From contig CAYHGA010000002.1 of assembly GCA_964356225.1 (NCBI GenBank), positions 14,894 through 78,893 on the forward strand: a stretch of 64,000 bases of DNA. Direction: 5' to 3'. A model generated the notes under the pieces. It saw nothing but the letters and a program-made list of their open reading frames with translations, did no database searches and was not told the DNA's origin. Of the stretch, positions 3,593-63,988 are shown one piece after another. This DNA comes from an uncultured Gammaproteobacteria bacterium (GTDB lineage Bacteria; Patescibacteriota; Microgenomatia; CAZETR01; Amesbacteraceae). The translations under genes and the position numbers were made by a program. Position 1 is the first letter of the stretch; each line of letters begins with the position of its first letter.

Positions 3593-3618
3593 TCAATACT
3601 GTAACATCCGGCCTTACT

Positions 3619-15033: not shown

Positions 15034-15042
15034 GGCAGGTTT

Positions 15043-15684: not shown

Positions 15685-15687
15685 GGA

Positions 15688-42554: not shown

Positions 42555-42870
42555 TTGGGGGTTTAGTCGCTACTTTTAACAGTCTTAAAAAAGAATAAAA
42601 GACAAATGTGTAAATCATGAATCCGGTTTGTATTCCAAACAGGCTTAGTGGCAGAAGAAATAGAATGCTAAAAATGACTAAAGTTTCCGGGACTTTATAC
42701 ATCGTTACTATTGCCAATGAAAATAAGAGCAACTTAAGCTCCAGGCTTTGTTCTAAAATATAAACTTCGGCTCCGGTCTTTATAAGCTCAGAAAAAATAA
42801 TATAGAAAATCAAAAGTAACATAATTTTTGGCTTTTCCAGATGTATATGCGTAATTATATTAATTTTCAT
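42547..42870 (-). CDS. Small polytopic membrane protein, possible GtrA-like lipid-linked sugar translocase
   Basis: 107 aa with 3-4 predicted transmembrane helices. It lies between a GT2 and a giant GT-C gene with 4-8 nt overlaps. Assignment rests on size, topology and context only. Confidence 0.35.
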   Translation of the reverse strand: MKINIITHIHLEKPKIMLLLIFYIIFSELIKTGAEVYILEQSLELKLLLFSLAIVTMYKVPETLVIFSILFLLPLSLFGIQTGFMIYTFVFYSFLRLLKVATKPPNE

Positions 42871-45800: not shown

Positions 45801-46391
45801 CGGAATCCCGGCTCCACCGTTTAGGAAAAAAAGTGTTACTCCTACCAGGATGGCATTTTTAAAAACTGACCCTTCTCTTAAATTAACATTGATTATTGCG
45901 AGAGTTATCAAAGGAAGCGCTGAGACAATAGAAAACTTGGACATCTCGGCAATAATCCAGGCCTGGAGAAGATAATGGTTCAGCATGTAAAACAAAGATC
46001 CGGAAATTCTTAAGACGGAATTTTCTTTTTCTGGGTGAAGCGATTTTAAAAGAACGTACATAGTTATCCCGGGAAGGGTAAACCAGAAAATGAAGTCAAA
46101 CTTTTGAGCAAGCTGTAATGAGCCTGTTAGCGCGTAAAAAAACGCCTGTAGGCCGTGTATAAAAATACCGGGGATGGCATCGGTTTGATTAGAACCAAAA
46201 CTGCCAACTCTATCAGTCCAAACAAATAACCTGTCTAACCAAAAGTCTATTGGGGCTAAAGGATAACTCATATCGTGGCCAGCGGCTAAATAACCACCCT
46301 TAAACCACAAAAGCGGTACTAACCCTACTAGGAGAAGGAATATTATTTCCAACCAATACCGATTAAATTTAGGTAGTTTCAACGGTCCCAT
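42867..46391 (-). CDS. Giant polytopic membrane protein, putative GT-C glycosyltransferase (AftD/YfhO-like)
   Basis: 1174 aa. About 13 N-terminal transmembrane helices, first loop GHDMSYPLAP...WTDRVGSFGSNQ, a soluble domain of about 650 aa, and one C-terminal helix. It is a paralog of the 1031-aa neighbour. Confidence 0.5.
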   Translation of the reverse strand: MGPLKLPKFNRYWLEIIFLLLVGLVPLLWFKGGYLAAGHDMSYPLAPIDFWLDRLFVWTDRVGSFGSNQTDAIPGIFIHGLQAFFYALTGSLQLAQKFDFIFWFTLPGITMYVLLKSLHPEKENSVLRISGSLFYMLNHYLLQAWIIAEMSKFSIVSALPLITLAIINVNLREGSVFKNAILVGVTLFFLNGGAGIPLWGGLFIVALTTTIITFLISSQPFVDKFKRTLSFSLLSLIFVLLLNFYWIYPYIASYQYNYTHRIGAAGGSEGAIAWSREISKNASFTNLIKLQGIPDWYDNPNHPYANTLLTNYFFLLLASVFPAIAFFSLLNKKGQANSDIVYKVVFLAILLVAIPFTAGSHPPTGVLYDLALKYIPGFPIFRTPFYKFGMALWFAYSYLVAVGLKQLTVKRAPFFSLTAFVVLLGIYNYPVFTGVFFNWSNKYSTRVKVPDYILEAKKELDSNSFSARTLMLPQLHDGNKYIAYDWKYFSLSSIPSILSRKPVLLNDAVLSGDEPGLVNAIYQQLEKSSQSSLLKYVGVDRAIVQEDFKVDEDMDYLTGSIKKALYRAPNSSLYKEVGKWKFFTINDPETKPLIYIPQNFSYILAETSQLSRISQTPGMPSLADAFIFKHISEGSNIDPIIYQKDIQNITIQAQCLNCQEKKYIDVVRSNPPPIFPSNPFYFLIEFIDQQKSEKYELPTEKIDFTMGTMSKEISAMDRIIINPKNSNTISYLFRKWSNNIYLVDQFFKDIDQQSQKDEYARRIYFYYWNFLVSIQKWRETGLTESTRAQLGKFEDMLTMSVQELDISPEVPISNYDVRTKQYTINVPYAGNYKLAVYNYKPNDRQALSGFVNNTPHILAKSSSSNKWYFGESIRLDQGGQSIVLPELIRKEKSYPGFKINATARSSECKSINLGEVDPEIDYNLNLEYLTLSDRLVDIELLETNQQFPKGNKKTIYPQTDKNSSAPFSYRLNIKYKPSIYAETALLRICVEGTYDFPAAFELKGIKVTENYSDYLAFVTKENPLIPPENYNLQFVALNQTAYLVKVSGISDSFILGFNSRFDQQWSVREVETSLANSYFKGREKKYLGGKVVEYERQDRHLLSDLVFKGEGAKSPDIKLNAYGNGWLIDSGSEKELAFLIEYRPQNILYKTSLVSIISLFSLGLIYLVLFYSKK

Positions 46392-46532: not shown

Positions 46533-49500
46533 CTATAAAAGTAAAAAAAATAAAATAATCAATAAAGAGGCTGTACTTACTCCTACTGCTTTGTAAAAAT
46601 CGTTTTGGTTATTATATTCCAAAAGATAAACATGTTCATTATCCTGGTTACTTTTTTCGGAATTTAAAATCCACCCGGGAGAGAAACCATTTAGTTCAAG
46701 AGTCGGATAAAGTTTTTTGCCGTTGTTTGGGAAAACGATGTCTGATAGCACGTGGGTATCTTGTCTTTCGTACTCAACCACTTTGCCGTTTTGAAAACTT
46801 CTCTTGTCTCCTCTAAAGTATTTGTTTACATCTTGCTCTATTTCTCTTAAACTCCAATTCGGATCAAAACGCGAGTTAAAGCCTAGCAAGAAGCGTTCGC
46901 TGCCTTTAGCTTTGAGTAAATATTTGGTTTGATTTAGGGCTACAAATTCAATATTTGGTGAAACAAACTCGGGAGCATTTTTCATCAATTCTGCAAAAAT
47001 TTTAGGTCTTGTTTCTGAATTTTTCGGTTTTTGTAACTCTAATAAAATCCGTACGTTTTCAAGCGGCACATTGGTAATTTGGTACCAATTTGTGCCGATT
47101 CTTTGAGCGCTAAACGTGCGATTGTTAACCGTCAATTGTATTTGATCACTTAATGTTGACTTATTGTAAAGATAAAGATTATAGCTTCCTGTTTCCGGAA
47201 CTTCGAGGCCGTATTTATATAATTTGTCGTCTACCTTCACCACAGGCTGTCCAAACTGTTCATCAATTTCTGTAATAGCTTTTCTTAATTCAATTTCAAG
47301 ATTAATCAGGTCTGATTTTATCGGGCCTAGTTGAGCAGAAGTTGCCCACTGAGATTCATAAGAAATGAAAAATGACAAGTAAAAACGAAGTTTTCTAAGG
47401 ATTTCTTGTTTTATTTTTGAATCCGAAATTTGATCCAGGTTAAGTTTCATTTCTTTCAAGTTTTTGATTAAATCCATTACTGCTACCCCGATCCCCTTTT
47501 CATCTTTCTTGGCTTGAAGCAAACCCAGGTCTGAAATTAAAGTTGTAGAAGCCGATAAATTGATTTCAATTCTCGCGTTTGGACTACCGGAAAAGTATTT
47601 TCTCGCGTCAGTTATAAACTTACCCAGCTTATAAAACGCTGTTCCGGGTATTAACGCCTTTGATGTGGAGAAATATATTTGATAGTTATCGGCTGAAGGA
47701 CAATCAGTACAATTAGCCTGGATAATAAGTTTAGAAAAAATGTCTACTTTTTTGTTATCTTCTGGAAAATCAGACCACAAAAACGCAGCGCTATCTAAGG
47801 CCCCTGGCAGATTTGCGACTATATCTAAATCTTTTTGATCAGATGAAATGAATGTAACTGCCGGTGGAGAGTAAATTCGAGGAAGGATTTCCCCATTATA
47901 ACCGTAGAAATCCCATCTTCCTATACTTTTCTTAAAAGTAAAATCTTTAGATTTTTTAAATGACTCTTTTATCCCACTTAAGACGTTGCCTTCATAATCT
48001 GGCGAAATAAAGTCATTTTGCACTACGGCTCTGTCAGCCCCTGTAAATTTAACCAAATTAGAATTTCCAAATTTAATATACTCTGATAAAGTGCTGATTA
48101 TCAAATTTGTCTCATTGGGCCTTGCTAACACTCCGTTTACTGTTAAGGATTTTCTTCCCATCATATGTGACAAATCATTTAAGCTAAAATAACCCCAATC
48201 GTAATCAATATACTCAGTTCTTATATCAGCGTTGGGTAAAGATAAAGTTCTGGTAGAGAATTTACTACTATCAAGTTCCTTCTTTGCTTCAAAGATATAA
48301 TCAGGCACTTTTACCATCGTGGATTTCCCTTTAGAATAGTTAAAAAAACTTCCTGTTAAAAATGGATAATTGTATATAAAGAGCGAAACTATAAATGCGC
48401 CAAGTAAAACCTTTGGTTTAATTTTTAACCAGTCTATTACATCTTTGACTCCCACTGCGATTAAATAGGCATAAGCAAACCAAATAATCATCCCAAATTT
48501 AAAAAACCCGGAACGAAACATGCCAAAACCGGGGGCGTTAACCAACAAGTAATCGTAAAATATTCCCAAAGGAGAATGGCTTCCTGCAGAGAGCGGAACT
48601 GCAATAAGTAATAAACTTAAGAAGTAAATTCTCGTTTTAAATAATAAGCCCGATAGTTTTTTAAGATTTAAAAGACCAAACAGAGCTAAAGTCGGAAAAA
48701 GAAGGTTTAGAAATAATAATATGGGATTTTTAAAAAATTCATTTGCAAAAGGATGATTTGGGCTGGCATACCAATCAGGTATTCCCCTAAGTTTAAACAG
48801 GTTTATCCAACTGGTATTTACGCTTATCCCCTGGCTCCAGGAAAGAGTCCCCGCTATTCCCCACGCTTGTTCGAATCTTTGCCCAAAGGTTTGGTTATAA
48901 GACTTAAAATAAGGGTAAAACCAATAACTACTAAGCAGTGTCCAGAATAAAGCAGATAAAAAAGAAAAGATGAGTAATCTTTTTATCTTAGGCCAAAAAC
49001 TTTCGTTTGACAAAAAGAAGAATATTATTGCTGTCGATGCAACTACTACAAACAAGCTAATCAAAAGTGGAATACCCTCTCCACCATTTAAGAAAAATAA
49101 GGTCAGGGCAAAGAGTAGAGAATTTTTTACGGGAGATTCTTTTTTATGTAATGTCTTAATTATTAAAAGTACAACTATAGGTAGAGCTGCGACGATTGAA
49201 AACTTAGTTCTTTCCGCGATAGTCCAGGCCTGAAGAAGATAGTGGTTCATCATGTAAAATAGGCTTCCGAAAATTCTAACCGGATAATCATTTTTCTTAG
49301 GATGTAGATAACAAAGAAGTGCGTACATCATAATTCCCGGAAGAACAAACCAAAAAATGTAAGTTATCTTTTGAACTGCGGATAGCGAGAACCCTATGAA
49401 GGACAGCAAAGCTTCAAGTCCATGTATAAACACGCCCGGCAGAACTTGAACTGAATTAGAGCCAAATGGGCCCAGTCTGTCGGTCCATGTATATAGTCTA

Positions 49501-49628
49501 TCTAAAAAATGAGCTACTGGGGCCAGGGAGAAACCCATATCGTGACCCAATCCTATGTATCCAGGCTTATACCAAAGAAGTGGTGCTAAACCAACGATTA
49601 ACAATAAAAGGATCTCAATTTTTTTCAT
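46533..49628 (-). CDS. Giant polytopic membrane protein, putative GT-C glycosyltransferase (paralog of 42867-46391)
   Basis: 1031 aa. N-terminus LIVGLAPLLWYKPGYIGLGHDMGFSLAPVAHFLDRLYTWTDRLGPFGSNS aligns with the 1174-aa protein. Same topology, ending in a C-terminal helix. Confidence 0.5.
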   Translation of the reverse strand: MKKIEILLLLIVGLAPLLWYKPGYIGLGHDMGFSLAPVAHFLDRLYTWTDRLGPFGSNSVQVLPGVFIHGLEALLSFIGFSLSAVQKITYIFWFVLPGIMMYALLCYLHPKKNDYPVRIFGSLFYMMNHYLLQAWTIAERTKFSIVAALPIVVLLIIKTLHKKESPVKNSLLFALTLFFLNGGEGIPLLISLFVVVASTAIIFFFLSNESFWPKIKRLLIFSFLSALFWTLLSSYWFYPYFKSYNQTFGQRFEQAWGIAGTLSWSQGISVNTSWINLFKLRGIPDWYASPNHPFANEFFKNPILLFLNLLFPTLALFGLLNLKKLSGLLFKTRIYFLSLLLIAVPLSAGSHSPLGIFYDYLLVNAPGFGMFRSGFFKFGMIIWFAYAYLIAVGVKDVIDWLKIKPKVLLGAFIVSLFIYNYPFLTGSFFNYSKGKSTMVKVPDYIFEAKKELDSSKFSTRTLSLPNADIRTEYIDYDWGYFSLNDLSHMMGRKSLTVNGVLARPNETNLIISTLSEYIKFGNSNLVKFTGADRAVVQNDFISPDYEGNVLSGIKESFKKSKDFTFKKSIGRWDFYGYNGEILPRIYSPPAVTFISSDQKDLDIVANLPGALDSAAFLWSDFPEDNKKVDIFSKLIIQANCTDCPSADNYQIYFSTSKALIPGTAFYKLGKFITDARKYFSGSPNARIEINLSASTTLISDLGLLQAKKDEKGIGVAVMDLIKNLKEMKLNLDQISDSKIKQEILRKLRFYLSFFISYESQWATSAQLGPIKSDLINLEIELRKAITEIDEQFGQPVVKVDDKLYKYGLEVPETGSYNLYLYNKSTLSDQIQLTVNNRTFSAQRIGTNWYQITNVPLENVRILLELQKPKNSETRPKIFAELMKNAPEFVSPNIEFVALNQTKYLLKAKGSERFLLGFNSRFDPNWSLREIEQDVNKYFRGDKRSFQNGKVVEYERQDTHVLSDIVFPNNGKKLYPTLELNGFSPGWILNSEKSNQDNEHVYLLEYNNQNDFYKAVGVSTASLLIILFFLLL

Positions 49629-51246
49629 TTGTGATATCCTTTTTTAATTTCTCTCTTATGTTTCCAGAAACGTTTTTAACAGAGTGTTTTTGATAGTCCC
49701 AATAATACGCATGCACATTGTCAGAAGATACGTCTGGATTCTCTTTGAGCGCACTTAATAGTTTGCTATAAGTCATGAAATATCCGTATTTGCCAGTTTT
49801 ATATTGTTTAAGCCCTTCATGGGAGAGGTCCCAAAAATCTGGATCGGTTAAAGCTTCATTTGGAACCTTGCCGGTGTTGTATAACCAAACAGCTAATGTT
49901 TGTCCAAATCCTGACTGAAATTCCCAAAACCCATTATTGTCCGTAAAAAAATAAAAGACATTGTTTCTTTCCAAGTTTGGTTTAATTTGTGATACAGTCT
50001 CAAGCATGGCTTTGCGGTATGCTCCTGTTTTGATATCTAATGCCAAGTCTCGTTTGATATTTGTTACATAATAACCCAAGAGGGGTAACAATATTATTAT
50101 GGATAATGGCAGTTTAATTTTAGGCAAAATTGACATATAAGTGTCGACTGTGAGAGCCAAAATCAGCCCTGCCCAAAGAGCGGGAAAAATATAAAAGCGG
50201 TGCTCTAATGTTGCCGGTTGGTTGGGGAACAAGACAAAAGGCGCACAGGAAAAACCAAAAGTTACTAGCGAGAACAATATTGTTTTTTTTGACCTTTTGG
50301 CTAAAGCTACGGCCCCAAGTACTATTGATAAGACTGTAATTGAACCAATTACTGAAACGGCGTCTCCAATAATGCTTTCTATTACATAACCGTTAGTCAA
50401 ATCTCCATAATGGATCTTGTTAGCTTTGTAAAATAAACTATAAAGTTGTTTTTGGGGGATGAAGACTTGGAAAAGGGTACGGGAAGGAATTAAAAGTGTG
50501 TTGTAGACAATATTTCCGCTCTGGGTAATTTTAGCCGCTTCAGGAACACTAGATGAAACCTCAATATTTTTGAAAAGTAGTTTTGGAAGTGCAATTGTTA
50601 AAAGAATTGGAATTATTAATATACTCCAACTCCATCTAATGCCTTTGGAAAAGACTAGTAATGGAAAAGTAAGTATGTAATATATTCCAGATTCTTTAAA
50701 AAGCAGTGAGATCAACATAAAGAGTGAGCAAAGTAATAAATTTTTTATCCTGCGATTTTTTCGGAAGGTTAATAGATTCCAAAAAGACATCATGAAGAAT
50801 GTAAACGAAAACTGAGACGGCACAATCGAGCTAATCCACGTGATGGCTTGTTGTGAGTATCCGTTTGTTAACCAAAATAGCGTAGTTACGATGGAAATTA
50901 CCCTGGATTCAGTAAGCTTCTCGATGCAAAAGTAAATTAGCAGAGAATTGGCCACTGCCATAAAAAATGCCAAATAACCGTACCATGAAAAATTTAGGCC
51001 GAAGGTGTTGAAAACCACATAATTGGCCAAAGATGTAAGGGGAAGGAATCTGAACAAGCCTCCGGCTGGATGAAATATGTCTATAACGGCTCGGGTTATG
51101 CCACCATTATCCCTTCTACTCATGGCCCCACCCAATCCCAACCACTCATCCTGCTGAAAAAAGATGTTATTTATTCCCCAAAAGGCTAGTAGAGCAACTA
51201 AAATAATTATTGACAAACTAAGAATGTGGGGCCGTATCTTACGCAT
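49615..51246 (-). CDS. Polytopic membrane protein, putative GT-C glycosyltransferase
   Basis: 543 aa, about 13 transmembrane helices. First loop FFQQDEWLGLGGAMS has a D-E motif. A soluble C-terminal domain of about 130 aa follows. Confidence 0.45.
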   Translation of the reverse strand: MRKIRPHILSLSIIILVALLAFWGINNIFFQQDEWLGLGGAMSRRDNGGITRAVIDIFHPAGGLFRFLPLTSLANYVVFNTFGLNFSWYGYLAFFMAVANSLLIYFCIEKLTESRVISIVTTLFWLTNGYSQQAITWISSIVPSQFSFTFFMMSFWNLLTFRKNRRIKNLLLCSLFMLISLLFKESGIYYILTFPLLVFSKGIRWSWSILIIPILLTIALPKLLFKNIEVSSSVPEAAKITQSGNIVYNTLLIPSRTLFQVFIPQKQLYSLFYKANKIHYGDLTNGYVIESIIGDAVSVIGSITVLSIVLGAVALAKRSKKTILFSLVTFGFSCAPFVLFPNQPATLEHRFYIFPALWAGLILALTVDTYMSILPKIKLPLSIIILLPLLGYYVTNIKRDLALDIKTGAYRKAMLETVSQIKPNLERNNVFYFFTDNNGFWEFQSGFGQTLAVWLYNTGKVPNEALTDPDFWDLSHEGLKQYKTGKYGYFMTYSKLLSALKENPDVSSDNVHAYYWDYQKHSVKNVSGNIREKLKKDITNEKN

Positions 51247-51959: not shown

Positions 51960-53501
51960 TTAAATTTTACGGGCATATATTTCAAGAGAATCAAAAAAAT
52001 TTATGGTTAAAAACGGTTTTCCCTTAAGCGCGGATAACAATTTATATATTGGTGGAAATATATTTTTTAGACGGGTTATCCAGTAATTTAAGCTAAAAGT
52101 CCAACTGTATTTCCCGAGCTTTTCAATTTTATACCCTAAAGACAAAAGAAGTAAAGATAATGTTTCTTCTGTAAAATAATAAATATGATCTGGACGAATG
52201 TGCCACCAATTTTCACCCAATAATTTTGAAATTAGGCTCCCTATATCGGGCGTCACTAGACATAACACCCCGTCTTTATTCAGAATTTTGTGAATGTCTG
52301 CTAAAAGTTTTCTGGGGGAAGATACGTGTTCAATCACGTCCAGGCAAGTTACGGCATCAAATGGCTTCCCCTTGAGCTTAACAGTTTCAAGTGTACCTTG
52401 AATAATATTTAGTCCGAATTTTTCCCTCCCAATTCTAGAAGCCCATTTTGATGGCTCAATTCCGATTGACTCCCACTTATGTCTGTGCGCAATTTCTAAA
52501 AGTGTTCCTGTAGCGCATCCAATATCCAAAAGCTTTCCAGAAAATTTATGTAGATTTTCTATCTTCTTAAATATTCTTTCATGCGTCATTAACCTTGCCG
52601 TTCTTTCATTTTCATAATCAGGGTCTACAAAGCCTGAATATCTTTCTACTAGTTTTTTATCTTTCTCTCTGGGAGAACAGTAAAGTAAATTACAATCCAA
52701 GCATTTAACTATTTGAGAATGGTCACCATATGAATTGTCGGTTATGTAGTACTTATCTTTGGCAATTCCCCTTTTTTGGTAAACAACTCTTGCTTTATCG
52801 TTACTACAAATATCGCAAATATGATTTGATAAACTGTTTATTTGAAATGTTTTTTTCATGAATCTATGATATTTTGTTAAAAGAAAAACCCAGGGAATTA
52901 CCAATGATTTTTTGAATTGTGCTTGAGAAAGATTTTCTAAAAACTCACTTCGACTCGAAAAATTATCCATGCAGATGTAATTTCTACCAAGCTCGTATTT
53001 AGTGTGAGCGTCACTGCCGATACACACAATTTTCCCTATTTTCTTTGCAAACTTTTCTGCTTTTAAATTGTCCCATGGCTTAATTGTTCTACCATTAAAG
53101 ACTTCAATTATGTCTATGTCATCAATATTCAAGGTTAAAGAATTTTCGTTAATGGCGGTTTTCCTTGTGGTGGTGTCAAACGGATGCGGTAAATACACAA
53201 GCCCTCCTTGGTGTTTAATTTCTTTAATTGTTTGCCTCATTGAAAGACCTGAAGGAATGAATTTTTTTAAAAATAAGCCTATTATCTCTCCTTCTTTACT
53301 CAAGATCTCCTCACCCACAATTACTTTAAATGGGGCAATTCTTTGAAGCCGTAGGGCGCCTTCAATTTGATTGTGGTCGGTAACAGCTAAAACATCAATC
53401 TTTTTCTGGATGCATTTATCTATTAAATCTTTGTAAGAGATCGAACAGTCGTACGAATACTTTGTATGAACATGTAATTCAACTTTAATTTTGGCAGACA
53501 T
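51960..53501 (-). CDS. Fusion protein: N-terminal PHP-family phosphoesterase, Cys4 zinc-ribbon, C-terminal class I SAM methyltransferase
   Basis: 513 aa. ELHVHTKYSYDCS...AVTDHN...GSDAHT are the His/Asp metal motifs of a PHP domain. The middle has CDICSND...CLDCNLLYC. The C-terminus has LLDIGCATGTLLEIA...AVTCLDVIEHV...KDGVLCLVTP. Confidence 0.65.
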   Translation of the reverse strand: MSAKIKVELHVHTKYSYDCSISYKDLIDKCIQKKIDVLAVTDHNQIEGALRLQRIAPFKVIVGEEILSKEGEIIGLFLKKFIPSGLSMRQTIKEIKHQGGLVYLPHPFDTTTRKTAINENSLTLNIDDIDIIEVFNGRTIKPWDNLKAEKFAKKIGKIVCIGSDAHTKYELGRNYICMDNFSSRSEFLENLSQAQFKKSLVIPWVFLLTKYHRFMKKTFQINSLSNHICDICSNDKARVVYQKRGIAKDKYYITDNSYGDHSQIVKCLDCNLLYCSPREKDKKLVERYSGFVDPDYENERTARLMTHERIFKKIENLHKFSGKLLDIGCATGTLLEIAHRHKWESIGIEPSKWASRIGREKFGLNIIQGTLETVKLKGKPFDAVTCLDVIEHVSSPRKLLADIHKILNKDGVLCLVTPDIGSLISKLLGENWWHIRPDHIYYFTEETLSLLLLSLGYKIEKLGKYSWTFSLNYWITRLKNIFPPIYKLLSALKGKPFLTINFFDSLEIYARKI

Positions 53502-53504
53502 TGA

Positions 53505-54383
53505 CTATAAGTAGAAAAGTATAAATAAAAGAATAATGACGATGGTATTTAAGATAAACTTATAACTAAAAACGAATGATTCAATATTTCTTGATTTGGC
53601 TTCACCGGATTTTACTTTTTTTACTATCCAAAGAAAATATAACACTATAAACGGAATTCCCATTAAAAATGACCGCTGATATTTATAAATTTCTCTAGCA
53701 ATAAAAATTGTTGATAGAGCTATATAAAAATACATCATGATCAACAGGCTTTTCAGAGAATAGGTATCAAATGTGTTTCTGTATGGAACTAGTTTTTTAC
53801 CATAAAACTTGAGCTCACCGTATCTTTTTGCGGTCATTAAAACTGCTCCTATAGACCAGGTTGATAATAAAATTAAAAGAGGGGGGAATTCTGATTTAAC
53901 TATCACAAACCAACCCAGGAGAAATCTGATAGGATTATTTAATGATTCTGAAATTACGTCTAAATAAGGTATATTTTTTAGTCTTATAGGTCTAATGTTA
54001 TACAAAATTCCGGCGATCCAGAGGGATCCAAGGACGTAAAGGAAATTGACATTATAAAAAATGTTAGCTACGAGCAAACTTCCAAATAATAGAATAAAGG
54101 CTAGTATTTCTGCTCTAAAAATTGTTATTTTGCCTGAAGGAATTGGTCTTGTTTTTTTGTCCGGGTGTCTTTTATCGAATTCTACATCTGCGATCTGGTT
54201 GACAATGTAATTAACCGAAGAAATTAGAGACGCCAGGATAAAAGCTCCAACTGCTTGTATCACAACTTGCGATCCAATGGATTTGCTTTGACTAAGAAAA
54301 ATTGCCGATATTATTCCAGCGATAATAAACAAGTTTTTGAACCAGTGATCAACCCGCATCAGCCTGATGTAACTATAGAACAT
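53505..54383 (-). CDS. UbiA-family polyprenyl-phosphate prenyl/phosphoribosyl-transferase (resembles decaprenyl-phosphate 5-phosphoribosyltransferase)
   Basis: 292 aa, 8-9 transmembrane helices. NQIADVEFDKRHPDKKTRPIPSGKI matches the N-x-x-x-D-x-x-x-D ... R-P-[IL]-[PA]-S-G UbiA active-site motif. N-terminal RVDHWFKNLFIIAG resembles the RPxQWxKN start of DPPR synthases. Confidence 0.7.
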   Translation of the reverse strand: MFYSYIRLMRVDHWFKNLFIIAGIISAIFLSQSKSIGSQVVIQAVGAFILASLISSVNYIVNQIADVEFDKRHPDKKTRPIPSGKITIFRAEILAFILLFGSLLVANIFYNVNFLYVLGSLWIAGILYNIRPIRLKNIPYLDVISESLNNPIRFLLGWFVIVKSEFPPLLILLSTWSIGAVLMTAKRYGELKFYGKKLVPYRNTFDTYSLKSLLIMMYFYIALSTIFIAREIYKYQRSFLMGIPFIVLYFLWIVKKVKSGEAKSRNIESFVFSYKFILNTIVIILLFILFYL

Positions 54384-55668
54384 TACTTTGGCTCAAAAAT
54401 TTCTTAACTTCTTTAAATACTGCATTTTGATCTTGATTTGCGTCAATTATTTGAAGTTTGATAAGTCTAGGCAAGCTTTGATATATTTTTTGCTGCTCAT
54501 AGTAATAATCGGGGGTAAATTCCTGTTCGCGTTTAAAAATAGTTGTTGGTCCTGCTGACATCATAAAGGCTATGTCTGATTTGGGTAATAATTTTACAAA
54601 AAATTTAAATGCCCACACCGGACAGTACCCGTAGTAAAAAAGATTGGCCCAAATGTCAGTGTAAAACCTGTCTGCGATGACAAAATCATTACTGGTAACA
54701 ATTGGGTATATTTTAAAAATATATGCTGCCCAAATATCAATAAAGGCAGGTATGAACCATAATTTAAAAAGAGGGTTTTTATTACGCCTAACTGGACCAG
54801 ACGGTGAACTACCCGTTGTTAATCTCAAAAATCCAATCAATGGCTTAAACAAAAAATACGTAAACATTGATTCGCCTGCGTTGACTCTTTTTCCATGGCT
54901 AATTAAATAATCAGTTAGAAGTTTTACTTGAGTGCTTTTCCCGGTACCATCAATCCCTGTAAACGATATCAAAAATCCCCTTCTTTCATAGGGTAAAGTT
55001 TTATTAACCAGATATCTAACACGGAAAAAGAGATAATAAGCTAAACTCACAAAATCGAACTTCTCTAGGTAAGAATATAGTATTAATTTCACTGGTAAAA
55101 ATAGGGGAAATTTTGGCTTTGGTTGCTGGTTTTTCATCCACTTTATGAAATTTATAAATGTGTTGTTCCAATTATACTGAACGGTCTGTTGTATGAGTTC
55201 TTGAGAATTCTTTATTTTTCTCCATTGGGGGAAAAACATTTCAAAGTCATCCTGTGTGAAATAGGTCTTTTCGAAAATAACGTTTATCATAACTAAAAAG
55301 GCATCCCATGTGGCGTCCACACAGTTTTTGGTTGAATTTAGCCAGATTTTTTTAACATCCAAATATTTTTCCTTGCGCCATGTAAAATCCTGGTGTAAAT
55401 CGATTTTTATTCTCCCGGGCCTGTTTAAATTAACCTGTATTCCCGCAATCCGTCCTCCTAATGCTTGATCGTGTGAAGATTGTTTGTAGCCTAATCTCTC
55501 AAGACTGTAAATCGATCCTTCAAAATCTTTAGACCGAACCAGAATATCAAGATCATCAGGAGCCCCTGTATTGGGATTATACCGCGTTAACAAATAATTT
55601 ATTCCTCGTAAATCCTGTAAAGTCTGCCTCATTTTTTTAATCATATCTTCTTTTTCATGAACAACCAA
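54373..55668 (-). CDS. Two-domain protein: N-terminal nucleotidyltransferase-fold (NTase/LicD-like) domain fused to a thymidylate-kinase-like P-loop kinase domain
   Basis: 431 aa. N-terminus GINYLLTRYNPNTGAPDDLDILV has a Gly...D-x-D NTase-fold signature. C-terminus FLISFTGIDGTGKSTQVKLLTDYL is a Tmk-type Walker A. Confidence 0.5.
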   Translation of the reverse strand: MVVHEKEDMIKKMRQTLQDLRGINYLLTRYNPNTGAPDDLDILVRSKDFEGSIYSLERLGYKQSSHDQALGGRIAGIQVNLNRPGRIKIDLHQDFTWRKEKYLDVKKIWLNSTKNCVDATWDAFLVMINVIFEKTYFTQDDFEMFFPQWRKIKNSQELIQQTVQYNWNNTFINFIKWMKNQQPKPKFPLFLPVKLILYSYLEKFDFVSLAYYLFFRVRYLVNKTLPYERRGFLISFTGIDGTGKSTQVKLLTDYLISHGKRVNAGESMFTYFLFKPLIGFLRLTTGSSPSGPVRRNKNPLFKLWFIPAFIDIWAAYIFKIYPIVTSNDFVIADRFYTDIWANLFYYGYCPVWAFKFFVKLLPKSDIAFMMSAGPTTIFKREQEFTPDYYYEQQKIYQSLPRLIKLQIIDANQDQNAVFKEVKKFLSQSNVL

Positions 55669-57173
55669 CCTTCTGGAGTCTCTTCTACGATTTTGAATTT
55701 TTCAAAGAGGTATCGATCAATTGTTTGATTATAGTTTTGCATTTTCGGTGTTCTCATTTTAGGGCCGTTGTTGGGATCATAAACAACGACTTTGACATTG
55801 TTTTTTTCGATCTTGTCAATAAATTCTAGTTGTTCTTCTTCTGTGGTAATAAACCCGGCCAGGAGATTATTAAACTGGGTAGGACTGGACCTGTGTGACA
55901 GAAAATAAAGACCTGCCATGTAAGGTAAAACCAGCACAGATTCGGTTGAAGTGGAATTTTCTCGTAAGAAAGTTGCTGATCTTTTCAAACTTTCTGCTGA
56001 AGGCTTTGTTGAGTTTGCAGGGTATTTGGAATTGAGATTAAACGTCTGATCAACTATTTGTATCTTATGGTCATTAAAGTGTATCCACCAGACCGATTGG
56101 GATATAGCGGCAACAAACAAGCCAATAATTAAACCATGCAATATAATCCTGGTTTTAAAATTCCGGGTATTTTTAAGAAGAAACACTCCCAAAACAAGAA
56201 ATGGCATTCCCCCTTTTACGAAATGTCCCATATCGCTCCGGCCAAAAACGTAAGGCAGAGCGAGTATTCCTGCAAGAGTAAGAATCGGAATTTCTATATT
56301 GTTTTTGATTATGACAGCTGTTTTTTTTAGAACCAGGAGGATACTAACCAAATATGTAGCTATGATGGCATATCCGTAATAGGCCGTGAATGTGTTACTC
56401 ACAGTGGCTAAATCAAACCGCAAAGGAATTAAATCTAATATGGATGGGAAAGATAAATGGTGAAGTCGGGTAATGGTTATTGCGCCCATAAAGACTTGGT
56501 TTATGAAAGCGCCAAAAATTCCCAAGTTGACCGTCCATAAGACTATAGCCAAAAGCGGTAATCCAAAACCGATTCCCATAAACAGTGAATACACGAACCA
56601 CCTTCTAATCCAGTCTTGGCGGGAAACCAAAAAAAGATGGATCGGCAAAACAACTATGGCAGCTACCCCAAAAGTACCAGGGATGTCTAAACGGAAAAGG
56701 CTAGACAATCCCAGCACCGAACCCGAACAACTAAAGAGCCACTTATTTTTTTGGTCAACGGCTTGAAGAAAAAGATACAAACCCAAAAAAATGAAGGTCA
56801 TCAAAAAAAGACGTTCGATGTTGACATCTAAAAATGTAATCAAAGTAGCTGGAATAGTAGATAATTTCGTTGACGCAAACCTTTTGCAGATGAGGAAAAT
56901 TAAAACTGGCGTAAATGAAAAAATGACGCTGGAAATAATTCTAGGTACTTGTACTGACTCACCGAAAAATTTGAATATTAAAGCATAAAAATAGTTATCC
57001 ATAGGAGGAAATATGGCAAAAAAATCACGATACGGGATGTCTCCAGTTAAAATTCTCCGAGCATTGTGCAGACTCTCCCCTTCGTCCACTAATCCAAAAC
57101 CATAGAACGAGAAAAGAGTAGTTTTAGAAAGAGCTACAAGAAAAATTAGAATTATGATCAGGTTACTTTTCAT
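55641..57173 (-). CDS. GT-C fold membrane glycosyltransferase (ArnT/PMT-like). Its start overlaps the stop of a GtrB-like GT2.
   Basis: 510 aa, about 13 transmembrane helices. First loop LVDEGESLHNARRILTGDIPYRDFF has the D-E-x-x-x-x-x-A motif of GT39/GT83 enzymes. Confidence 0.55.
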   Translation of the reverse strand: MKSNLIIILIFLVALSKTTLFSFYGFGLVDEGESLHNARRILTGDIPYRDFFAIFPPMDNYFYALIFKFFGESVQVPRIISSVIFSFTPVLIFLICKRFASTKLSTIPATLITFLDVNIERLFLMTFIFLGLYLFLQAVDQKNKWLFSCSGSVLGLSSLFRLDIPGTFGVAAIVVLPIHLFLVSRQDWIRRWFVYSLFMGIGFGLPLLAIVLWTVNLGIFGAFINQVFMGAITITRLHHLSFPSILDLIPLRFDLATVSNTFTAYYGYAIIATYLVSILLVLKKTAVIIKNNIEIPILTLAGILALPYVFGRSDMGHFVKGGMPFLVLGVFLLKNTRNFKTRIILHGLIIGLFVAAISQSVWWIHFNDHKIQIVDQTFNLNSKYPANSTKPSAESLKRSATFLRENSTSTESVLVLPYMAGLYFLSHRSSPTQFNNLLAGFITTEEEQLEFIDKIEKNNVKVVVYDPNNGPKMRTPKMQNYNQTIDRYLFEKFKIVEETPEGWLFMKKKI

Positions 57174-58215
57174 GAGCGATCAATGTTGATAATTTGCTCG
57201 GATTGAACAACAGAAGAATAATCAGTAGATCGGTAATCAAAAGGTTAACCACCGGCTCATATAAACCCACCCAGTCTCTGTGTTTGACTGATTTATATAT
57301 GCCCACAAATACGGAAGGGATTATCAAATTGACGTAGACTATCCATATGAATATTTTGAACAGATTTCTTTTGAGATCAATCCAAGTATAGAGATTATTT
57401 TGAAGATGAGAAAAATATACTTTAGTGAGATTATATTTTCGTTTACGGAGTAACTCTTTTAAGCTTGTTACGTGATGGTGATACAGGACGGCTTGAGGAA
57501 CAAAGGCAAATTGTTGATGACCATGAAGCACTAAAAGCTTTAAAAAATCCAATTCTAGAAACATCTCAAAGTTTTTGGTTAACTCCCATAATTGTTTACG
57601 TCTATATAGGCACCGCCCGGATGGCGGGATTCTATCGGTTTCATATTTGCATAAAAAATAACTAGTAAGAGATTTAATAATCGTTGATTCAACTGATGGA
57701 GTAAGCCATTGATATAATCCGTCCCGTTGGAGAACGTCAAAAGATAAATATCGTTCGATAGGAGCAGAATTCGGACCAGCTCCTTCTTTGGTAAAGCTAG
57801 CAACTATTCTAATATCTTGTTCCAAAGGAGTAACTAGTTGTTTAAAAAAATCTTTACTTATTAGTTCTACGTCTGCATCCAGATACATGAAGTACTTACC
57901 CGTTGCCGCCCTAAATCCGATCATTTTACCGATTTCACCGTGTTTTTGGCCGTTTCGTAAAAGCAGTACTGGATATTTTTTGGCAATTTTTAAGGTGTGA
58001 TCTGTAGAATCATCATCTACTACCAATACTTCTAATTTGTCTTTAGGATAATCCTGACCAAAAATTGAGTCTAAACATTTCTTGATATTTTTTCCCTCGT
58101 TAAAGGTTGGGGCAACGACTGAGATTTTTGGCCAGATCATTTTTCTAAATATTTTGTAAACAACAGTCCTTTTGCAAAGGTGTAAGCATAACTTAAATGT
58201 GATAAATAAATGCAC
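57163..58215 (-). CDS. GT2 glycosyltransferase with C-terminal transmembrane helices (GtrB/DPM1-like)
   Basis: 350 aa. ISVVAPTFNEGKNIKKCLDSI...LEVLVVDDDSTDHT...YLDADVEL, plus two C-terminal helices. Confidence 0.7.
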   Translation of the reverse strand: MHLFITFKLCLHLCKRTVVYKIFRKMIWPKISVVAPTFNEGKNIKKCLDSIFGQDYPKDKLEVLVVDDDSTDHTLKIAKKYPVLLLRNGQKHGEIGKMIGFRAATGKYFMYLDADVELISKDFFKQLVTPLEQDIRIVASFTKEGAGPNSAPIERYLSFDVLQRDGLYQWLTPSVESTIIKSLTSYFLCKYETDRIPPSGRCLYRRKQLWELTKNFEMFLELDFLKLLVLHGHQQFAFVPQAVLYHHHVTSLKELLRKRKYNLTKVYFSHLQNNLYTWIDLKRNLFKIFIWIVYVNLIIPSVFVGIYKSVKHRDWVGLYEPVVNLLITDLLIILLLFNPSKLSTLIAHEK

Positions 58216-59144
58216 AAAGGTAGAATTAGGGCGACTTTCCAGTCAGCTATTCTTAAGGCATCGATCATGCCAATTATGTATAAAATGATTCCCAACATTA
58301 ATACCTGCGGAAAAACGATTGAGGTTAACATTAAAATTATGGTTATAATAATGCCAAGTAAGGGCATGAAGTAACTGGGACGAAGTGATGTTTGGGGATA
58401 TTTTTTAACAAAATATCCTCTGTGCAGACCCACATTGCCAACTTGGGCTAGATATCCTTCTGGAAAATGTCTCCGGTGGTGGTAAACCACTATTTCGGGA
58501 TGGTATAAAATTTTTTTCCCGGAATTAATTAGTTTGAGACATAAAGCAGTATCTTCACCTCCGTAAAATTTATTGCCGAAGCCGCCGATGGAGAGTAAGT
58601 CTTTACGTTTAGCTATTAAGTTATATGCGGGGTAGTCGTCTACCAGCCGGGGTGACTTCTGAATAAATCTGTAGGCATATGGACCCGTGCCCCAAAAGGT
58701 GGAGAGAATGGCTCCAGTGATTTGCTGGCGGAATCCGTCCATGGGGGGAGTTAAACCAGGACCGCCAATGGCGGAAATATCGGGGTGTTGATTAAATATT
58801 TTTATTGCTTGCTTGAGCCAATCCCGCCGGGGGTAAGAATCATCGTCTAAAAAGGCTATATATTCAGCTTTTGATTTAATGATACCAATGTCTCTTTTTT
58901 CAGCCGGACCAGTGCGCGACTGTCCCGTTTCCAAAACACGTATCCGAGGGTTTTTGAAATTTAGCTTCACTCCCTTATCTACTCCTATTAGAATTTCAAA
59001 ATTAGGATATTCCAATTGTAAAGATTGAGCTACTGCTTCATAAAAATATGCTGTTTCTTTATAGAGAGCAATGATAATTGAAATTTTGGGGTATTTTTTC
59101 ATATGTGTGTTATTTTTTTTGAACTTGATAAAATTTGTTTCCAA
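58137..59144 (-). CDS. GT2 glycosyltransferase with C-terminal transmembrane helices
   Basis: 335 aa. ISIIIALYKETAYFYEAVAQSL...FLDDDSYP (DxD); hydrophobic C-terminal 90 aa. Confidence 0.7.
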   Translation of the reverse strand: METNFIKFKKNNTHMKKYPKISIIIALYKETAYFYEAVAQSLQLEYPNFEILIGVDKGVKLNFKNPRIRVLETGQSRTGPAEKRDIGIIKSKAEYIAFLDDDSYPRRDWLKQAIKIFNQHPDISAIGGPGLTPPMDGFRQQITGAILSTFWGTGPYAYRFIQKSPRLVDDYPAYNLIAKRKDLLSIGGFGNKFYGGEDTALCLKLINSGKKILYHPEIVVYHHRRHFPEGYLAQVGNVGLHRGYFVKKYPQTSLRPSYFMPLLGIIITIILMLTSIVFPQVLMLGIILYIIGMIDALRIADWKVALILPLCIYLSHLSYAYTFAKGLLFTKYLEK

Positions 59145-60220
59145 TTGTATCTTCGACTCATTCTCGATGTGTTGCCAGCTAATATCATATATTCTTTATT
59201 ACCAAAATATTTTAAGAAAAGCGTGGCAATTTGTCTGTCATCGTCAAATAATAATCCTGTCTCATCATTTACTATCAGTTCGTCCATACTACTCCCCTTT
59301 TTGGCAATCGTTGGAGTACCAGAAGCGGCTGCTTCCAAAACTGTTAATCCAAATCCTTCCTTAAATGACGAGTGAATTAAAAAATGAGATTTGGCATATA
59401 GAGTGTTTCGTTGTTGATCAGAAACTTTCCCAAGAAACTCTACATTTTTTTGTAAATGGTTTGAGTTCACATAATCTTTAAGTTCCTGAACATAGCCTAA
59501 ATCTCCATCTCCAACTACAAATAATTTAAATTTTGGAAGATTTTTTGATATCTCTCTGGCGGCTCTAAGTGCAGACTCAATACCCTTCATTTTAACAAGC
59601 CTGGCTACGAATAAGGCTGATGGGAAATTAAACTTTGTGGCGGGCTTAAATTTTGATATATCAATTCCCAAAGGAATAATTTTTATTTTCAAATTTGGGT
59701 TTATTTTGAGGATGTCTCTTTTTGTACTTTCTGATATCGCCCAAATTTCGCAGTTTCGATAAACAAGATATACGATTCTTTCTAGAAATTTTCCTATGTG
59801 GTTAATTGGAAAGGGATACATTTTGTCCCAAATTGTACCCGCGACCTCACATACCCATAATACTTTTCGGCCTCTTGCGTAGAGAGGTGAAAATAAAGGT
59901 AGTCCATGAATTGCGTCCACAACTAAGTCGATTTTTTTGTTTCTGATAATTCCCCAACCGATCCAGATGTTATTTAATAAAAATATTGGGTAGGTAAGAA
60001 GCATGGTTAATGTGTTGTAAAACTTCAATTCTGGGCCAACTCTATGAATGGTTAATCCGTGCGTACTTTCGTCTATAGGTAAGTTTCCATAACGGCTCCC
60101 TAACCAAAAAACTTTGTGTCCGGCATCAGTCCAATGTGTGACATATTTCAACATCACTTGCTCTGCTCCTCCACTCCTGGGATTGGACGGATCCCGCCAC
60201 GACAAAATCAAAATGTTCAT
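59099..60220 (-). CDS. Glycosyltransferase family 4 (GT-B)
   Basis: 373 aa. MNILILSWRDPSNPRSGGAEQV (N-domain) ... GFGLTVLEAAASGTPTIAKKGSSMDELIVNDETGLLFDD. Confidence 0.75.
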   Translation of the reverse strand: MNILILSWRDPSNPRSGGAEQVMLKYVTHWTDAGHKVFWLGSRYGNLPIDESTHGLTIHRVGPELKFYNTLTMLLTYPIFLLNNIWIGWGIIRNKKIDLVVDAIHGLPLFSPLYARGRKVLWVCEVAGTIWDKMYPFPINHIGKFLERIVYLVYRNCEIWAISESTKRDILKINPNLKIKIIPLGIDISKFKPATKFNFPSALFVARLVKMKGIESALRAAREISKNLPKFKLFVVGDGDLGYVQELKDYVNSNHLQKNVEFLGKVSDQQRNTLYAKSHFLIHSSFKEGFGLTVLEAAASGTPTIAKKGSSMDELIVNDETGLLFDDDRQIATLFLKYFGNKEYMILAGNTSRMSRRYNWKQILSSSKKITHI

Positions 60221-61994: not shown

Positions 61995-62787
61995 CTAGGT
62001 ATGTGTCGGGGAGCCAGTTTTTGCGATTGGAGTCGTCGTAATAGTGAAGAATTTTTAGTCTGTAGAAAACGGCAGCTGAATCCCAAGCCATGTTGAAAGC
62101 GGTTTTGATAAAACCCGTGTTGAATATGGAAGAGGTATGTAGAAATTTCATGGAAAGTTTAACAGGGGCTTCGTATATCTTTGTGAAACCCAAACAATGG
62201 GCTACTGCAAGAATTTCTATATCAAAAGCAAACTTTTTTACGAGAAGCCGAGGAAGAACTGCTTTAATCAGTTCTTTTCTGTAGAGCTTCATGCCTACCT
62301 GAGTATCTCGAACATTTAATCCAAATAACAATTTAACGCCTATCTGGTACCCCCACGACAAAATCTTTCTTTGCCAAGGATAAGTAACCTGGGAAACTGG
62401 ATGGCGCTTTGAAGCTATAATGGCATCTGCTTTGTACCAGTTAAAATGTTCCAGCATCATGGGAATCATGCCGTAATCCAACTCTCCTGAGTCTACAAAG
62501 CCGATTATACGTCCAGTGGAATGAGCCATGCCGTATCGGACGGCAAATCCCTTGCCAGAATTATTTGGGTATCCTATTACTTTAATATTGTTAGTGGAAA
62601 TGGATTTAGTTTTTTCAAAAGTTTTGTCTAAAAATCCATCAACTACACAAATAATTTCATATGGTTTATTGAGACTTTTAAGCACTGTTTCAAGCCGGTG
62701 AAGGGTTTTGATTATGGTTTTTTCCTGCTTATATGCCGGGACAATAATAGAAATATAGGGGTCATTCAAAGTTTTGGCGGGTGGCAT
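61987..62787 (-). CDS. GT2 polyprenyl-phosphate glycosyltransferase (DPM1-like)
   Basis: 266 aa. ISIIVPAYKQEKTIIKTLHRLETVL...IICVVDGFLDKT...GKGFAVRYGMAHSTGRIIGFVDSGELDY. Confidence 0.7.
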   Translation of the reverse strand: MPPAKTLNDPYISIIVPAYKQEKTIIKTLHRLETVLKSLNKPYEIICVVDGFLDKTFEKTKSISTNNIKVIGYPNNSGKGFAVRYGMAHSTGRIIGFVDSGELDYGMIPMMLEHFNWYKADAIIASKRHPVSQVTYPWQRKILSWGYQIGVKLLFGLNVRDTQVGMKLYRKELIKAVLPRLLVKKFAFDIEILAVAHCLGFTKIYEAPVKLSMKFLHTSSIFNTGFIKTAFNMAWDSAAVFYRLKILHYYDDSNRKNWLPDTYLDG

Positions 62788-63988
62788 AGAAACTATAAAT
62801 TATTAAAACTGCCGCAAGTATACCAAAAACAACACTTAAAGAGAAAACCACTTGAGTCAAATTGGCATGAAAGAAATAAATCCCTGCAGCTTCTAACCCC
62901 AGTCCTATAAGTGAAATCCAAGCTGCCTTAATTTTGTTTAAGGCTAATAGAAATCCTGCGCAGGTATTGGCTAACGAATAGCCTAAAATAGCTAACCCCA
63001 TCCAGGCTATTAAAGGAGCAGCCGCTATAAATTTGCTTGAAAAAACGGATGTTATTAATACCTGGGCAGTCAAATGATAGAAACCCACTATTAAAGCCCC
63101 TATTGTTCCCGACACTCCTAATAGTAACCATAAATCACTTCTGGCGCGTCCGGGGTGATGAGATTTTCGAGCCACAACTGGAACCATCGCCGACCCGAGA
63201 GGTGCTTGGGCAAAATATACTACTTTGCCAGCAGTAACAAGAACCGCATAAATTCCTGTCCAATAATCATTAAAGAAATGTTTAACCAGCAAAATATCTA
63301 TCGAGTACATTAGAGTATAGGAAAGCGACAATAACAACCCCCCAAGCCCTAAAGATTTAATAGGCCATTTATGGTGCTCAAATTTGCTGGTTGGCACTTT
63401 AAATATCTCGCGGGCTTGAAATAAATTAATGAACAGAACAACTATTGAGGCTAAAATGACTCCAACCAGCCCCCATCCATACCACTGCGAAATTGAATAA
63501 ACCAGGACTACTGAAAAAATAAGCCTAATTGCCATTTCCACTATTTGATTTGAGACAAGAGCTGTAAACCTAAACCATGCTTTCAGAACTGAACGTAAAA
63601 CTGTAATTATCAATGACAAATAAATAAATACCCAGATTGTGACTACTGGTCCTACTTCCGGGAGATTTAAAAAATGCTGCACGGATTTGGAAAAGAGCAA
63701 TAAGACCGGCAGCATAAACAACGATATTAAGCCTACGCGTTGACCCAGATAAACCAGCAAGCCACGGGTATGAGAAATCATCTTGCCAGGTTCAAAGCTA
63801 GATATTAGTTTCGTTACCAGGAAGTCTAAGGCATTCATCGGCACTCCTACTACATACAGCAAACCGAAGAGTGCTGCTAGAATGCCATATTGTTGTGGCC
63901 CTAATAGCCGAGCCAAAACGAAGTGATAGGCAAAGGCTAGGCCACTAACTACGACGTTTCCAATTAAAAAAATAGAGGTACCTCTCAA
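62762..63988 (-). CDS. Wzx/MurJ-like polysaccharide flippase (MOP superfamily)
   Basis: 408 aa, about 12 transmembrane helices. N-terminus VVVSGLAFAYHFVLARLLGPQQYGILAALFGLLYVVGVPMNALDFLVTKLIS is typical of Polysacc_synt. Confidence 0.55.
   Translation of the reverse strand: MRGTSIFLIGNVVVSGLAFAYHFVLARLLGPQQYGILAALFGLLYVVGVPMNALDFLVTKLISSFEPGKMISHTRGLLVYLGQRVGLISLFMLPVLLLFSKSVQHFLNLPEVGPVVTIWVFIYLSLIITVLRSVLKAWFRFTALVSNQIVEMAIRLIFSVVLVYSISQWYGWGLVGVILASIVVLFINLFQAREIFKVPTSKFEHHKWPIKSLGLGGLLLSLSYTLMYSIDILLVKHFFNDYWTGIYAVLVTAGKVVYFAQAPLGSAMVPVVARKSHHPGRARSDLWLLLGVSGTIGALIVGFYHLTAQVLITSVFSSKFIAAAPLIAWMGLAILGYSLANTCAGFLLALNKIKAAWISLIGLGLEAAGIYFFHANLTQVVFSLSVVFGILAAVLIIYSFYATRQNFE

Follow-up and report, generated by a model that had tools for sequence, protein, structure and literature searches.

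The 64,000-nucleotide stretch studied here (the window) comes from an uncultured bacterium of the candidate phyla radiation (CPR; contig CAYHGA010000002.1) and carries a long minus-strand operon in which one gene joins a nucleotidyltransferase (NTase) domain to a thymidylate-kinase-like (Tmk-like) domain. The operon runs from a Wzx-like flippase gene through glycosyltransferase genes of families GT2, GT4, GT2 and GT2 and a PMT_2-like GT-C gene to the fused gene, a UbiA-family gene and a PHP::methyltransferase fusion, and continues with a second methyltransferase, a protein with nine transmembrane (TM) segments and two paralogous membrane proteins of more than 1000 amino acids. Given these GT2, GT4, GT-C, UbiA, methyltransferase and Wzx-like flippase genes, we regard the surroundings as a glycan locus. 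The maximal open reading frame (ORF) of the fused gene, seen both in the ORF list and by direct reading, has 431 codons at 54373..55668 on the minus strand and begins with a TTG at 55668. A first, sequence-only reading of this DNA had given the gene that whole extent; the ORF indeed exists, but translation probably starts at the ATG at 55644. This ATG and the stop codon of the upstream GT-C gene overlap as ATGA, and a start there yields the 423-amino-acid product of the public gene calls. So defined, the gene covers 54373..55644 (minus strand, stop included) and its product is 100% identical to public protein P0001. The same reading had noticed the motifs G...DDLDILV and GIDGTGKST in one ORF inside a glycan locus, without stating the strand. 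Both are there, on the minus strand: TGAPDDLDILV spans residues 34-44 of the 431-residue ORF, and GIDGTGKST residues 238-246, preceded by FT (…FTGIDGTGKST…).

The matches of the N-half homologues to PF14907, together with the AlphaFold folds of both domains, argue that the two motifs belong to real domains and are not chance strings. The N- and C-domains were aligned and modelled separately, and each model covers one domain; a joint MAFFT alignment, in which the full-length protein was combined with the single-domain homologues of both kinds, was discarded, having misplaced the N-domain homologues onto the C-domain. The N-terminal domain (54985..55644, minus strand) is predicted to adopt the pol-beta NTase fold, a core followed by a helical bundle (predicted local distance difference test score, pLDDT, 85.6). 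All 22 members of its clade match the PF14907 (NTP_transf_5) profile at E <= 0.01 (best E 5e-14), so the NTase fold suspected from the letters alone is borne out. The fused protein itself scores 23-25 bits against this profile (E 2e-5 to 5e-5; gathering score 31.2 bits). In the clade alignment, the putative metal-binding D-x-D pair D39/D41 within DDLDILV (55537..55557, minus strand; numbering of the 431-residue ORF) and the third catalytic carboxylate D90 within KIDLH (55393..55407, minus strand) are invariant among the 22 sequences, and KIDLH also holds an invariant His92. The hG[GS] triphosphate-binding motif ahead of the D-x-D was not found in this alignment, which shows a conserved LTR(Y/F) there and no G-S or G-G. 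A PDB sequence search with the N-domain profile gave no match, and its relatives came from fold comparison alone, the nearest solved structures being MenT1 (8an4), ANT(2'')-Ia (4xje), TglT (6j7n) and LnuA (4wh5). Like PF14907 proteins, these share with the domain a pol-beta core followed by a helical bundle, and a D-x-D plus a third Asp. ANT(2'') and LnuA nucleotidylate sugar hydroxyls, and MenT acts on tRNA ribose. Many distant fused homologues (alignment A5: P0155, P0134, P0138, P0142, P0145, P0141) show an N-x-D…H triad in place of D-x-D…D, and the His of DLH/HLH is invariant there even where the triad is degenerate; across the wider family, the N-domain may not be a classical two-metal NTase.

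Two explanations start from this fold. LicD and FKRP share the pol-beta NTase superfold, and the N-domain had been proposed to be of the LicD/fukutin type; it would then move a phospho-headgroup (phosphocholine or a polyol phosphate) onto the glycan after the kinase had phosphorylated that headgroup. A CDP-alcohol phosphatidyltransferase gene beside the module in one distant locus fits such a role, as does a phosphonate gene-cluster family in which, according to a passing remark, Ppm is flanked by a thymidylate kinase and a PF14907 protein (PMC8942020). This remark was the sole trace of PF14907/NTP_transf_5 in our literature searches, and combined searches returned nothing relevant. The LicD profile (PF04991) matches neither the fused protein at E <= 1 nor any of the 22 clade members at E <= 0.01, and fold comparison did not place LicD or FKRP closest to the domain. 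The LicD assignment therefore falls, and we give headgroup transfer little probability. Additionally, since MenT1 and TglT are toxins among the best structural matches and their antitoxins phosphorylate, one might think of a MenT/AbiE-like NTase toxin with a kinase antitoxin, or of an anti-phage defence module. MenT antitoxin kinases are not of the Tmk fold, a PADLOC scan gave no family beyond P-loop noise, and the genes are translationally coupled in a long glycan operon, with relatives fused to GT4 or methyltransferase domains; we attach next to no weight to this explanation.

The C-terminal domain (54376..54984, minus strand) is modelled as a P-loop kinase of the thymidylate-kinase fold (pLDDT 89.7), with both the G-x-D-G-x-G-K-[ST]-T P-loop and the DR[YHF] motif. 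The Tmk-type Walker A sequence GIDGTGKST (G-x-D-G-x-G-K-S-T), with the P-loop Lys K244 (numbering of the 431-residue ORF), lies at 54931..54957, and the DRF, counterpart of the thymidylate kinase DR(Y/H/F), at 54664..54672 (both minus strand). According to the alignment, the clade-invariant catalytic set comprises GxDGxGKST, D109-R110 of the DRF (domain numbering) and the lid R156. The clade profile matches Tmk chains in the PDB at E 3e-11, and ABC or AAA proteins were not the best sequence or fold matches of the domain, so that the domain is not ABC/AAA and the earlier Tmk-like proposal is upheld. Against PF02223 the fused protein scores 24.2 bits over the P-loop segment alone, under the gathering score of 27 bits, and an NCBIfam scan of it returned P-loop noise only. 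HMMER aligns kinase residues 34-89, the dTMP site in Tmk, to no Tmk; this stretch bears the clade-specific, aromatic-rich motifs MFxYFL, GPVKRN and KLWFIPAFIDIW. As to dTMP-binding residues, the clade lacks REPGG, has A-N-L/Y-Y where Tmk has A-Y-Q, and shows an invariant Ile88 (AFIDIW) at the position of the alpha3 Arg, which we take to be R78 in the FYAAR of E. coli Tmk, located by counting back from the DRF. Because residues 34-89 cannot be aligned to Tmk and an invariant Ile replaces this Arg, the C-half, a Tmk-fold kinase by its sequence and model, is very unlikely to be a dTMP kinase. Its hydrophobic helix scores 1.58 on the Kyte-Doolittle scale, just below the TM threshold of 1.6, and we do not take this as proof of membrane insertion. 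Both domains come from known superfamilies, and neither subfamily has a characterised member.

How the two domains came to be joined can be read from close relatives. Even at 70-86% identity, homologues of the N-half stand alone (about 240 amino acids), as do those of the C-half (about 205), and they are encoded by two adjacent genes that overlap by 11-17 nt (L011-L015, L024-L033). The junction in these relatives is a stop/start overlap (…TATGATTTTTAAGAGAGG…) that reads …CCT TAT GAT TTT TAA, with the kinase ATG inside it. The corresponding junction in the window, CCC TAT GAA AGA AGG GGA (P-Y-E-R-R-G; 54976..54993, minus strand), has lost 4 nt by deletion relative to L011, or 10 nt relative to L013; the stop codon is gone and the frames are joined as …LPYE-RRGFLISF…, with a linker of zero length between the domains. 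The fused gene is a recent, lineage-specific in-frame merger of two overlapping, translationally coupled genes, and its sequence relatives indicate that it is not a designed bifunctional enzyme of its family. Since at least four independent assemblies, most of them from Hainich groundwater, carry the fused allele, and a 97%-identical variant (L023) shares the deletion, we consider it a real genotype and not an assembly error. The label "thymidylate kinase" given to some homologues in their sources and the origin of the fusion in a small deletion could be explained by a housekeeping dTMP kinase accidentally fused to an unrelated NTase, in a pseudogene-like or artefactual manner. This account conflicts with the recurrence of the allele, with the missing REPGG, the invariant Ile and the lost Gln of AYQ, with the invariable position of the gene within glycan operons, and with a junction placed as in old fused families; it is hardly credible. 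A small deletion at a coupled stop/start is an ordinary event, and the fusion is informative as one of many Rosetta-stone links. The readings that we rejected are a true dTMP kinase, an ABC/AAA ATPase, a member of the LicD family, an assembly artefact and a toxin-antitoxin system.

The NTase and kinase genes are constant companions in the loci for cell-surface glycans of ultrasmall groundwater bacteria. The pair was mapped by phmmer in 18 + 26 related loci, and every related CPR locus with enough flank contains both the NTase and the Tmk-like gene, beside GT2, GT4, GT-C and methyltransferase genes. Named genomes with the pair are Candidatus Woesebacteria and unclassified metagenome-assembled genomes; a scan of genome contigs gave four loci, and tblastn against plasmids one, in Herpetosiphon. 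The arrangement varies: either gene may come first, a methyltransferase gene or four genes may lie between them, and in one case the Tmk-like domain is fused to a methyltransferase (P0002 in L005). Two GT2 genes, the PMT_2-like GT-C, the 9-TM protein and a membrane protein of about 1030 amino acids accompany the pair throughout. Beyond these loci, an exhaustive phmmer search returned 1395 matches at E <= 1e-3, and many proteins of 410-480 amino acids match both halves colinearly at 22-28% identity, and their junction coincides with that of the window. Domain mapping and Pfam scans of the 150 best representatives gave at least 10 NTase::Tmk and 5 Tmk::NTase fusions. GT4::Tmk and Tmk::GT4 fusions (P0121, P0105, P0113, P0163, P0196), a GT4::NTase fusion (P0210), a triple Tmk::GT4::NTase fusion (P0119) and the methyltransferase::Tmk fusion P0002 also occur. 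These repeated kinase–NTase, kinase–GT4, NTase–GT4 and kinase–methyltransferase fusions constitute strong comparative evidence that the enzymes act on one substrate. The genomic contexts of distant members agree in that a GT4 gene always abuts the module, often with an AftD-like or PMT_2 GT-C; further contexts are a large GT-B (Epimerase_2/polyST-like) in nonulosonic-acid loci and an archaeal STT3 locus. Moreover, the "thymidylate kinase-like" Haur_5092 of the Herpetosiphon aurantiacus plasmid pHAU01 (L051; CP000876.1 119494..120186) falls in the same clade, and its gene and the end of a GT4 gene overlap. The cluster there, GT2-GT2-Alg14-Alg13-GT4-GT4, contains no NTase, which ties the kinase directly to GT4 and not to the supply of an NTase. 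Herpetosiphon aurantiacus is a cultured organism, in which the Tmk-like/GT4 coupling is genetically testable. Some loci carry several copies: L016 has a second, divergent NTase::Tmk paralogue, an example of these colinear proteins (2943..4262, minus strand; 440 amino acids, about 18% identity) on the same contig as a split NTase/Tmk pair, two fused paralogues flank a GT4 in L020, and L046 and L047 each have a fused paralogue plus an extra 320-amino-acid NTase.

The neighbouring genes in the window, all on the minus strand, point to a pentofuranose branch. Upstream lies the PMT_2-like GT-C gene (55641..57173). The next gene downstream (53505..54383) shares 11 nt with the end of the fused gene and encodes a UbiA-family, polyprenyl-phosphate phosphoribosyltransferase-like protein, whose NCBIfam match to decaprenyl-phosphate phosphoribosyltransferase has E 8e-28 and falls below the cut-off. 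It is followed by the PHP phosphoesterase::methyltransferase fusion (51960..53501), whose methyltransferase half is of class I, contains a zinc ribbon and is the one fused to the Tmk-like domain in P0002. The PHP half occurs only in loci that also bear UbiA, which makes it a candidate 5-phosphatase for polyprenyl-P-ribose-5-P; L005, a short contig, has UbiA and no PHP. Taken together, the UbiA protein, the PMT_2-like GT-C and the Wzx/MOP-type flippase (62762..63988) resemble the three components of an extracytoplasmic pentofuranose-adding system, here in a CPR bacterium. Could the kinase serve this branch? It might make phosphoribosyl pyrophosphate from ribose-1,5-bisphosphate, as PhnN does, for the UbiA synthase, or it might take polyprenyl-P-ribose-5-P as a mimic of a nucleoside monophosphate (NMP). 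Tmk chemistry runs from phosphate to phosphate, and the P-loop Asp, which contacts the ribose 3'-OH in Tmk, is kept. Furthermore, in the window and many relatives the Tmk-like gene or domain directly precedes UbiA and overlaps with it, and the locus holds the three-component parts UbiA, PHP phosphatase and GT-C (PMC11127046). However, the pair is found with no UbiA or PHP nearby in L007/L040, L016, L018/L036/L037, L034 and the distant nonulosonic-acid loci, and is therefore not tied to the pentofuranose branch. As this explanation also leaves the GT4 fusions and the role of the NTase unaccounted for, we judge it quite improbable. In L007/L008, where no UbiA is near the pair, an epimerase/dehydratase and a transketolase split into N and C halves follow the cluster (12870..15693), which hints at a different sugar donor branch.

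Distant relatives have GT4 domains fused to Tmk-like and/or NTase domains. In the window, the rest of the operon includes the GT4 gene (59099..60220), two of the GT2 genes (58137..59144 and 57163..58215), the 543-amino-acid 9-TM protein (49615..51246), and the paralogous membrane proteins of 1031 and 1174 amino acids (46533..49628 and 42867..46391), with about 9-12 TM segments each by hydropathy. The latter two have no Pfam or NCBIfam match in the window. Their relatives in other loci match GT-C_AftD and always lie downstream of the kinase/NTase pair, with the 543-amino-acid protein; for the protein of about 1030 amino acids the AftD match is weak in relatives and, in L050, passes Pfam significance. 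A 578-amino-acid protein (40818..42554, minus strand) at the edge of the locus matches Pfam Glycos_transf_2 over two separate stretches (E 5e-46). The G+C content falls from 45-48% at 1-28 kb, where FtsA, a penicillin-binding protein transpeptidase and a class II tRNA synthetase are encoded, to 34-38% across the glycan region at 32-60 kb. An Rfam scan of the whole 64 kb gave no family at threshold.

We infer that GT4 and the module share one target molecule and that the module works on it from the cytoplasmic side of the membrane. Tentatively, we favour a reading in which the kinase, at this cytoplasmic face, adds phosphate to a sugar of the lipid-linked glycan that the partner GT4 builds, and the NTase and methyltransferase then act at that site. 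The pair would serve as an accessory to the line of enzymes (GT4, GT2, GT-C, flippase) that assembles a lipid-linked glycan or lipoglycan. Its kinase, with an aromatic, hydrophobic segment in place of the nucleobase pocket, would use ATP to phosphorylate a sugar or sugar phosphate on a lipid-linked intermediate made or used by the partner GT4. The NTase would move a nucleotidyl group onto the same intermediate, as a cap or as activation for a phosphodiester, and the co-conserved methyltransferases would modify that same site further. The fusion would only hard-wire a complex that exists as two subunits in relatives. Phosphorylation of a lipid-linked sugar is favoured because the kinase is coupled to GT4 even where the NTase is missing, because it is fused to a methyltransferase in one lineage, following the logic of WbdD, and because LpxB and LpxK offer a precedent of a GT-B enzyme followed by a P-loop kinase on a glycolipid; nucleotidylation is favoured because the structural neighbours of the NTase nucleotidylate sugar hydroxyls.

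Several points weigh against such a mechanism. The known glycan kinases WaaP, WbdD and KdkA have a protein-kinase-like fold and not the Tmk fold, and the usual acceptor of Tmk-type enzymes is a phosphate and not a hydroxyl. Instead of touching lipid or membrane, the hydrophobic helix of the kinase (residues 75-102) could form an interface between subunits. Given the N-x-D…H triad of many distant fused homologues, what the N-domain has conserved may be something other than classical nucleotidyl transfer. Our literature search found no paper describing the pair, and no activity, substrate or product for any member. Finally, the fusion patterns fit a donor-synthesis pipeline equally well. In this main rival, the others being lesser, the kinase phosphorylates a free sugar, the NTase converts the sugar phosphate to a nucleoside diphosphate (NDP)-sugar and GT4 uses the donor, so that the module is a non-orthologous analogue of FKP (fucokinase/GDP-fucose pyrophosphorylase) or HldE in a salvage route. 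Where a kinase and an NTase are fused in a glycan locus, sugar activation is the typical role, as in FKP and HldE, and L020 contains an HldE-type PfkB+CTP_transf gene. All pairwise fusions and the triple fusion with GT4 would suit a three-step channel, the hosts are metabolically reduced organisms of the CPR/DPANN type in which salvage is plausible, and many aromatic, Asp and Asn residues are invariant in the kinase family, as is usual in sugar-binding sites. Nevertheless, we know of no NDP-sugar pyrophosphorylase with a pol-beta fold, the Tmk-like and GT4 genes of Herpetosiphon pair up in the absence of any NTase, many distant fused proteins have a degenerate NTase triad, and hydroxyls, not phosphates, are the targets of the enzymes structurally nearest to the NTase. 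Donor activation thus seems unlikely to us. Phosphorylation at the lipid-linked stage, in turn, can be carried further than we would ourselves expect to hold. It is conceivable, if doubtful, that the Tmk-like kinase, PF14907 NTase and GT4 form an undescribed three-enzyme unit that phosphorylates and then nucleotidylates a lipid-linked sugar primer, and that the resulting nucleotide-capped or phosphodiester-activated glycolipid is extended by the giant AftD-like and PMT-like GT-C enzymes into a lipoarabinomannan-like lipoglycan. It would be a unit widespread among CPR bacteria, DPANN-like archaea and some Chloroflexi. If true, such a unit would bring new chemistry to both folds, an NMP-kinase fold working on a glycolipid and a pol-beta NTase on a glycan.

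A large share of microbial diversity belongs to CPR and DPANN organisms, whose cell envelopes have hardly been characterised. The locus resembles the mycobacterial arabinan/lipoarabinomannan pathway in its UbiA phosphoribose synthase, GT2 polyprenyl-P-sugar synthases and several GT-C enzymes, and adds an obligate kinase/NTase pair absent from any known pathway. The fused protein, small, soluble and with both predicted activities already linked, offers a concrete and testable entry point. Two very large superfamilies would gain new chemistry if the substrate of the kinase is a glycolipid or that of the NTase a glycan.

It is instructive to set the module beside systems that are better understood. 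Compared with Tmk proteins of PF02223 (Sulfolobus tokodaii ST1543, 2plr; Aquifex aeolicus Tmk, 2pbr), the kinase has its dTMP segment replaced by the aromatic, hydrophobic series MFxYFL…GPVKRN…KLWFIPAFIDIW, lacks the nucleotide-binding Arg and Gln, and is always encoded in glycan operons, in many cases joined to a GT4, NTase or methyltransferase domain. FKP and HldE likewise unite a kinase and an NTase in one polypeptide for glycan biosynthesis, but their folds are unrelated (GHMP or PfkB kinases; Rossmann-like or HIGH-motif NTases). The sequence-only reading had also proposed that the protein phosphorylates and caps the glycan in the manner of WbdD, the chain terminator of E. coli O9a. In WbdD a kinase is linked to an S-adenosylmethionine-dependent methyltransferase in a polysaccharide locus, as in the fusion P0002 of L005, and by analogy this suggests phosphorylation followed by methylation of the same site. 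The methyltransferase::Tmk-like and GT4::Tmk-like fusions speak indirectly for the capping idea; the kinase of WbdD has a different fold, eukaryotic protein-kinase-like, so that the comparison is one of analogy only. WbdD also has a coiled-coil ruler and works with an ABC transporter, whereas here we see a Tmk fold, no coiled coil, Wzx-like and GT-C components and, in the window, a methyltransferase encoded by a separate gene. The recurrent coupling and fusion of GT4 with the Tmk-like kinase matches the step from LpxB to LpxK in lipid A synthesis, where a GT-B enzyme is followed by a P-loop kinase on the lipid-linked product at the membrane surface. Lastly, the locus shares with the three-component pentofuranose systems (Kelly et al., 2024, PMC11127046) and with mycobacterial decaprenylphosphoryl arabinose (DPA) and arabinan synthesis a phosphoribose synthase of the UbiA type, PHP as a candidate phosphatase, a gene resembling flippases, and several GT-C enzymes, AftD-like giants among them. 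It differs from them in its Tmk-like kinase and PF14907 NTase, which those systems lack and which, as a pair, also occur in loci that have no UbiA.

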